Origin: Escherichia phage Pu-Krd-SF1
DNA: 64,000 nucleotides
Reading direction: 5' to 3' (one strand)
Sequence record: PQ249395
The position numbers and the translations under genes were made by a program. The notes under the pieces were generated by a model. It had not been told where the DNA came from, ran no database searches, and saw only the letters and a program-made list of their open reading frames with translations. The first letter of the stretch is position 1. Each line of letters opens with the position of its first letter. Shown piece after piece: positions 42,962 through 43,298 of the stretch.

Positions 42962-43298
42962 AGATGATTTAGATTTAGATCTAGAAATTATCGATGAATC
43001 CCCCTCTTCGGAGGGGGAAGAAGAAAGAAAAGAACGTCTTTTTAATGAATCTCTTAAGATAATTAAATCTGCCATGGAAAATGTTATCCAGGAGATTGTC
43101 ATTAAACTAGAAGATGATTCTACACACATTGTGTATGTGACAAAATTAGATTGGGTTGATGGAAAAGTCGTAATGGACTTTGCTGTTCTTGACCAAGAAA
43201 GAAAAGCTGAGTTAGCTCCTCATGTAGAAAAGTGTATTACAATGCAACTACAAGATGCATTTAATAAAAGGTCAAAGAAAAAATTTAAATTCTTTTAA
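42954..43298 (+). CDS. 40: Head vertex assembly chaperone gp40
   Basis: ATG 42954 overlapping the uvsX stop; 114 aa; position between uvsX and 41. Confidence 0.6.
   Translation: MNKDDLDLDLEIIDESPSSEGEEERKERLFNESLKIIKSAMENVIQEIVIKLEDDSTHIVYVTKLDWVDGKVVMDFAVLDQERKAELAPHVEKCITMQLQDAFNKRSKKKFKFF

Follow-up and report, generated by a model that had tools for sequence, protein, structure and literature searches.

UvsX, a filament-forming recombinase, is required in far greater quantity than gp40 or the helicase gp41, and its gene is co-transcribed with genes 40 and 41, which raises the question of how unequal product levels are obtained from one transcript. A hairpin that protects the 3' end of uvsX RNA would explain them. 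Here we analyzed a G+C-rich hairpin that lies just inside gene 40 in a stretch of 64,000 nt from Escherichia phage Pu-Krd-SF1 (record PQ249395; this whole stretch is hereafter called the window), asking whether it could serve as such a structure and which other functions have to be considered. The region belongs to a Tequatrovirus and is 100% identical to that of Escherichia phage Pu-Krd-SF4 and 97.3% identical to that of T4.

The hairpin at the junction of uvsX and gene 40

The original prediction had placed a hairpin, CCCCCTC-TTCG-GAGGGGG, at 43000-43017, shortly past the uvsX stop and some 45 nt from the start of gene 40, in AT-rich surroundings. Reading out the sequence returned it at exactly these positions on the + strand, and folding added one pair (U42999-A43018), yielding an 8-bp stem, six of its pairs G:C, that is capped by a UUCG loop (-15.9 kcal/mol for the isolated hairpin, Table 1). 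This stem begins 45 nt past the first base of the ATG and the hairpin starts 38 nt past the uvsX stop; its G+C content is 70%, compared with 29% in the flanks and 34% in the whole window. The gene 40 ATG overlaps the uvsX stop (ATGAATAA), the start of gene 41 follows the gene 40 stop by 9 nt, and the hairpin is placed in the acidic, poorly conserved N-terminal segment of gp40, where it codes for SPSSEGE inside ESPSSEGEE, the very peptide that had been proposed.

Table 1. Features of the uvsX-40-41 region of the window, followed by the sequences of the orthologous hairpins.
Feature	Position	Strand	Sequence (5' arm-loop-3' arm for whole hairpins)	Remarks
bgt	40423-41478	+		precedes uvsX
uvsX	41780-42961	+		RecA-like recombinase; cistron upstream of the hairpin
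gene 40	42954-43298	+		head vertex assembly chaperone; ATG start
gene 41	43308-44735	+		replicative helicase; GTG start; downstream cistron
5' arm	42999-43006	+	UCCCCCUC	third base of Glu15, Ser16 and Pro17 codons, first base of Ser18
tetraloop	43007-43010	+	UUCG	closing pair C43006-G43011, i.e. C(UUCG)G
3' arm	43011-43018	+	GAGGGGGA	Glu20 and Gly21 codons, first two bases of Glu22
purine-rich tail	43019-43040	+	AGAAGAAAGAAAAGAACGUCUU	occupies the place of a terminator U-tract
Tequatrovirus hairpin			UCCCCCUC-UUCG-GAGGGGGA	
Mosigvirus hairpin			UCCCCUUC-UUCG-GAAGGGGA	
Gelderland-, Moon- and Karamvirus hairpin			CCCCCUC-UCAG-GAGGGGG	
Klebsiella phages hairpin			UCUCCCUC-GGAA-GAGGGAGA	
Winklervirus hairpin			GGAAUCCUC-UGAU-GAGGAUUCC	
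Winklervirus relative (L037) hairpin			GGAGUCCUC-AAAC-GAGGACUCU	
Erwinia phage Cronus hairpin			UUCCUCCCC-UUCG-GGGGAGGAG	
Dhakavirus hairpin			GAGGGUC-CUAGU-GACCCUC	
Kanagawavirus hairpin			GAGGGCC-CUAGU-GGCCCUC	
Gaprivervirus hairpin			UGCGGAGGGAGC-UAAG-GCUCCUUCUGUA	
Yersinia phages hairpin			GAGGCUCC-GAAA-GGAGCUUC	
Marfavirus hairpin			AAGCUCCCCUU-GAAG-AAGGGGAGUUU	

The hairpin stands out from its surroundings. Its 141-nt context folds with a z-score of -3.43 and none of 200 shuffles was as stable; on the + strand of the 64-kb window, where a simple hairpin of such stability is found in 0.9% of 140-nt windows, it ranks as the fifth most stable simple hairpin. The window contains 27 copies of the motif CTTCGG, where 11.9 would be expected. 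The likeness to intergenic hairpins that the original prediction pointed out also holds: CUUCGG hairpins at 10250, 27113, 28384, 33963 and 35912 sit by upstream stop codons, at most about 3 nt away, and the gene 40 hairpin is the only one in the window that lies well within coding sequence. An Rfam scan of 42700-43400 (E <= 10) returned chance-level matches only, the best scoring 22.4 bits against a gathering score of 94. The late promoter motif TATAAATA is absent from uvsX-40-41, and nothing near the hairpin made a convincing sigma-70-like site.

Conservation, covariation and anchoring to uvsX

Gene 40 loci were collected from GenBank phages and IMG/VR, yielding 37 distinct uvsX-40 loci. In every one of the 37, a hairpin at least as stable as about -10.7 kcal/mol begins 2-61 nt past the uvsX stop (median -14.0 kcal/mol), and these hairpins comprise 15 distinct sequences, with loops that are often UUCG or GNRA tetraloops. 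For comparison, the -10.7 threshold is reached by 3.5% of 259 control windows, taken at the same loci from uvsX, gene 41 and the remainder of gene 40, and by 6.4% of windows over the 64 kb. When stem complementarity was set against synonymous variation, no ortholog encoding the same peptide was found to have lost the pairing: the sole hairpin difference between same-peptide orthologs is a compensatory, synonymous pair of codons, CCC/GAG in Tequatrovirus vs CCT/GAA in Mosigvirus. The two differences (CCC to CCU and GAG to GAA) fall at positions 43004 and 43013, which are mutual pairing partners. Across the whole of gene 40, 34% of the codons with a conserved amino acid differ between the two genera; in the hairpin, two codons do. 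Orthologs with unrelated peptides also retain a strong hairpin at the equivalent place, the encoded peptides ranging from SPSSEGE to AEGAKAPSV and EESSDEDS.

A formal count of pairs was limited to the nine sequences that can be aligned without gaps, in a MAFFT alignment that was not fitted to structure. In this alignment 100% of the cells pair and four of the seven pairs change on both sides, a result that was matched by none of 500 shuffles and by no slid register. Between Dhakavirus and Kanagawavirus, compensation from U:A to C:G comes at the price of an Asp to Gly change. MAFFT also puts the GAGGG (Glu-Gly) of the 3' arm in Tequatrovirus in register with the GAGGG that Dhakavirus and Gaprivervirus have in the 5' arm; the conserved Glu-Gly codons thus pair upstream in one clade and downstream in another, a switch of arms.

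Two sets of natural variants were noted on the side. In a Mosigvirus-like contig from IMG/VR (L017, 644-661), the loop is UUUG in place of UUCG, a change of Ser to Leu in gp40, and the stem is intact; in this variant, the stem appears to be under stricter selection than either the peptide or the loop. In Citrobacter phage CF1 (MG250484; L005/L026), the C-run of the 5' arm is one base shorter (CCCCTC) than in its Moonvirus relatives L020 and L021 (CCCCCTC), which shifts the gene 40 frame, and the annotated start in that record lies downstream of the hairpin. Either the homopolymer was misread in sequencing or the frameshift is real.

The hairpin is also written in seven codons that are rare in this genome: TCC makes up 4.8% of Ser codons (TCG 5.8%), CCC 1.7% of Pro codons, GAG 16% of Glu codons and GGG 4.8% of Gly codons. 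When codons 2-50 of gene 40 were recoded synonymously 2000 times with the window's own codon usage, a single recoding reached the observed hairpin stability. In the other lineages with an embedded hairpin, 0-26 of 2000 recodings did so at 14 loci and 128-141 at three loci, whose peptides are intrinsically palindromic in codon terms. Altogether, the rare codons, the rarity of equally stable recodings and the conservation with compensatory changes show that the hairpin is no by-product of coding and is under selection beyond protein coding. It is also a case of an RNA structure that dictates amino-acid sequence, in the N-terminal segment of gp40.

The position of the hairpin relative to the two genes is informative in phages where uvsX and gene 40 do not overlap. 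In these phages no hairpin lies within gene 40, and one is found in the spacer, 2-11 nt past the uvsX stop (Pseudomonas PspYZU05, Acinetobacter 133, Vibrio D480, Aeromonas 65.2, ELT4 and Slopekvirus AYL). The spacer hairpin of PspYZU05 (AAAGGAGGC-UUCG-GCCUCCUUUUUU) is a textbook terminator, and U-tracts are also found on the post-uvsX hairpins of Vibrio D480, ELT4 and Aeromonas 65.2. In all non-overlap phages except PspYZU05, gp40 is without the acidic N-terminal segment of about 30 residues that bears the hairpin in T4-type phages. Because hairpin position tracks the uvsX stop across genera, spacer cases included, the hairpin belongs to the 3' end of uvsX; it is coding in T4-type phages only because gene 40 begins there before uvsX has ended. 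It also belongs to the sense RNA: owing to G.U pairs, the sense strand is far more stable than the antisense strand (-19.2 vs -8.8 kcal/mol in Gaprivervirus, -13.0 vs -8.2 in the Yersinia phages), and this gap, together with the tetraloops, suggests that the element acts as mRNA rather than as DNA.

Sinorhizobium phage phiM12 (L239) was a case apart: gene 40 is absent, uvsX overlaps gene 41 directly and a hairpin of -13.5 kcal/mol lies within gene 41, 23 nt past the uvsX stop (1691-1718). This single observation is consistent with a post-uvsX hairpin that is older than gene 40.

The reported T4 3' end and the probable function of the hairpin

T4 has the identical hairpin sequence at the same place in the same uvsX-40-41 order (T4 positions 22,329-22,348 for 42999-43018 of the window), and its RefSeq record carries no annotation there. 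According to the Fig. 5B legend of Kim et al., 2025 (PMC12152347), which cites Hinton, 1989, an RNA 3' end is found in vivo immediately past a stem-loop in T4, and both lie within the 358 nt upstream of gene 41. As Hinton, 1989 (J Biol Chem 264:14432 and 14440) is cited there, a rho mutant has more RNA with its end at this site, and extension into gene 41 is regained with GoF(D25Y); the gene 41 mRNA level is stated to drop as more RNA ends upstream. In a reporter with the 358-nt region, GoF(D25Y) acted post-transcriptionally, with a longer RNA half-life, its effect was strongest with the whole region, and wild-type GoF was without effect (PMC12152347). The gene 40 hairpin is the most stable local structure of these 358 nt (-16.7 kcal/mol, the next being -12.3), and since it is by far their strongest stem-loop, it is in all likelihood the published one; the reported 3' end would then fall just past the stem in our window. 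The hairpin itself is very probably already known in T4. The breadth of its conservation, the covariation, the arm switching and the alternation between embedded and intergenic positions across T4-like phages may be new; none of these was found described in the papers searched. A review of post-transcriptional control in T4 (PMC3014915) does not mention the site, the literature searched held neither a Term-seq nor a cappable-seq study of T4 nor any other data set of T4 3' ends, and the supplements of Wolfram-Schauerte, 2022 give temporal classes only.

We consider that the hairpin is probably a structure that defines and protects the 3' end of uvsX transcripts, and that it uncouples uvsX mRNA from genes 40 and 41. 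With no U-tract after the stem, most RNA polymerases would read on into genes 40 and 41, and the longer transcripts would end downstream through Rho-dependent termination or endonucleolytic cleavage. Host exonucleases would then trim these RNAs in the 3' to 5' direction until they are blocked by the C(UUCG)G-capped stem, leaving a discrete, stable 3' end right past the hairpin. The uvsX message would be stabilized and its level uncoupled from that of genes 40 and 41. The 3' end would thus be created by exonuclease blockage and not by termination, and the purpose of the hairpin would be differential expression. There is precedent in E. coli, where Rho-dependent transcripts end precisely past stable stem-loops that have no U-tract and that shield the RNA from PNPase and RNase II (Dar and Sorek, 2018; PMC6061677); the stem in gene 40 is likewise stable and not followed by U-rich sequence, as is characteristic of a protective 3' stem-loop. 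Two points count against this best reading. The hairpin has to be melted by every ribosome that translates gene 40 and should therefore be a weaker barrier on translated RNA, and no C-rich, G-poor rut-like stretch was found downstream (C/G 0.5-0.9 in 80-nt windows from 43020 to 43340). The original prediction that the hairpin may attenuate or process the uvsX-40-41 transcript is supported by the ortholog conservation, the T4 3' end and the rho effect, with the qualification that the hairpin, for want of the U-tract, is not a canonical terminator.

A possible but clearly less probable reading is that of a weak co-transcriptional terminator or attenuator, at which a fraction of polymerases stop or pause past uvsX, perhaps aided by Rho or Nus factors, directly lowering transcription of genes 40 and 41. 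Such an element could have descended from canonical terminators of distant relatives. The identical 18-mer CCCCCTCTTCGGAGGGGG is found in at least 120 unrelated viral contigs; 81 occurrences (80 loci) were examined, and at 59 of them at least five T follow within 8 nt, so that it serves there as a terminator stem. The orthologous hairpins of distant relatives are also mostly U-tracted (the four spacer cases named above), and their function there may be true termination. In addition, the T4 3' end just past the stem-loop changes in abundance with rho alleles, as reported in PMC12152347. In the window, however, the tail that follows the stem (AGAAGAAA) has no T in its next 8 nt, most other embedded versions are likewise without a U-tract, and a terminator consensus scan did not call the gene 40 hairpin. 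Because the U-tract is absent, the hairpin is not a canonical intrinsic terminator; and because the same 18-mer is U-tracted in most of the occurrences examined and has no U-tract here, it is a terminator-type stem minus the release signal, which may retain some residual terminator activity. Attenuation is further disfavored by the essential gene 41 downstream and by the post-transcriptional action of GoF(D25Y) through RNA half-life (PMC12152347). Two further candidates were rejected: an antisense terminator, as the minus-strand version is likewise without a T-run, and a RegB cleavage site, as the GGAG of the 3' arm is buried in the stem and missing from the Mosigvirus and Dhakavirus versions.

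It seems improbable that the hairpin acts in translation, slowing ribosomes 45 nt into gene 40 so as to tune gp40 synthesis or the coupling of uvsX, 40 and 41. The architecture would allow it, given the overlap of the gene 40 start with the uvsX stop and the 9 nt between genes 40 and 41, and in overlapping architectures the hairpin always lies 28-82 nt past the script-assigned start codon, beyond the footprint of an initiating ribosome. But stems of this kind are unwound by elongating ribosomes, and in six lineages the equivalent hairpin precedes the ribosome-binding site of gene 40 and occupies the post-uvsX spacer, which argues that its position tracks uvsX and not a position in the gene 40 reading frame.

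Somewhat less probable still is a recognition or nucleation site for a protein, either of the LSm-like GoF family or Hfq on the purine run, that controls decay of the 40-41 RNA; such a site could coexist with 3'-end protection, the reading that we prefer. The GoF(D25Y) effect was strongest with the whole hairpin-containing 358-nt region (PMC12152347) and an A/G-rich run (AAGAAGAAAGAAAAGAAC) follows the stem. Nevertheless, stem and loop sequences are wholly different between genera (15 variants) and the purine run is not conserved, both of which disfavor sequence-specific recognition, and wild-type GoF was inert in the reporter (PMC12152347). The least probable alternative, in which the hairpin has no RNA function and is a by-product of the gp40 peptide SPSxEGE or a DNA-level feature, draws on the recurrence of the peptide E[ST]PSxEGE in several genera, on Ser-Pro and Gly-Glu codons being intrinsically near-complementary and on a strong hairpin persisting in 6-7% of the Klebsiella and Yersinia recodings, but it is largely refuted by the rare codons, by the one recoding in 2000 that was as stable, by paired changes that are both compensatory and synonymous, by hairpins kept with unrelated peptides and in non-coding spacers, and by G.U pairs that are effective on the sense strand only.

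At its broadest, 3'-end protection could be extended to a proposal that we hold to be speculative and rather doubtful: the hairpin would be the conserved cis core of a regulated switch, in which host Rho and phage LSm-like GoF-family proteins tune read-through or decay at this point and which sets the helicase:recombinase ratio across Tevenvirinae, and it would represent a wider, unrecognized class of 3'-end hairpins that in T4-like phages lie hidden early in the reading frame of the following gene, with nrdG as a second member. The natural variants described here (15 sequences, compensatory changes, arm switching, intergenic vs embedded positions) can be used on the 35-year-old question of termination vs processing, and would also be useful to find the target of GoF(D25Y).

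Other hairpins of the window and comparison with known systems

Several other structures were noted in the window. A hairpin of -17.5 kcal/mol, GAAUGGCCCUG-GAUG-CAGGGUCGUUC, is located at 22674-22699 (+), 35 nt into nrdG, and is followed by UUUUCG. Of 28 nrdG loci from IMG/VR, 20 retain at this position a hairpin at least as stable as -14.6 kcal/mol, with a compensatory variant (AAUGGUCCUG/CAGGACCGUU), and a distant nrdG clade has a different strong hairpin 7-9 nt into the gene (six of seven loci). After that of gene 40, the nrdG hairpin is a second candidate for a structure with a 3'-end or regulatory role that is embedded near the 5' end of the following coding sequence. Gene 62 contains a perfect 22-nt palindrome (AGATTGGACAGCTGTCCAATCT, 35035-35056, +), 59 nt into the gene and just past the gene 44 stop; it was found in Tequatrovirus loci only, being absent from the other genera, and is probably not a conserved RNA element, so that it lends no support to a general rule of embedded hairpins. 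Long A+T-rich stem-loops of 14-16 bp (-17 to -21 kcal/mol) stand 7-10 nt past stop codons at 44742-44777, 7676-7711 and 32585-32620 (+), and resemble the promoter-early stem-loop cassettes of T4-type phages. Part of the one that follows gene 41 is shared with a sigma-70-like promoter at 44736-44764 (TTTACA-17-TATAGT, TG-extended). Relative to T4, the mobile genes segA, between bgt and uvsX (41479-41779), and mobB (27168-27193) are missing, and two ORFs (21812-22642 and 48190-49026) are without an equivalent at the same place in T4; G+C-rich hairpins lie near the 5' ends of both ORFs, at 21868-21890 and 48221-48245, respectively.

How does the gene 40 hairpin compare with known elements? It has the G+C-rich stem-loop of an intrinsic terminator and is missing the U-tract that begins 0-2 nt past the stem. 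Canonical terminators of other phages use the same 18 nt (CCCCCTCTTCGGAGGGGG) with a U-tract in 59 of the 81 cases examined, compared with none here. Extra-stable C(UUCG)G hairpins of T4 mRNAs were reportedly described by Tuerk and colleagues in 1988; with these the gene 40 hairpin shares the loop, the C:G closing pair, the sense strand and the place after a cistron. They are intercistronic, whereas the gene 40 hairpin is translated, 45 nt inside the next gene; its orthologs in six lineages are intercistronic as well (for the context of C(UUCG)G hairpins, see PMC4371310). The stem-loops at Rho-dependent 3' ends in E. coli (PMC6061677) have in common with it a stable stem, no following U, a reported adjacent 3' end and sensitivity to Rho; in contrast to these, the gene 40 hairpin is phage-encoded, lies in coding sequence and has no C-rich rut downstream. 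The closest match is the T4 stem-loop upstream of gene 41 (Hinton, 1989, as presented in PMC12152347), where T4 has a hairpin identical in sequence and place to that of the window.
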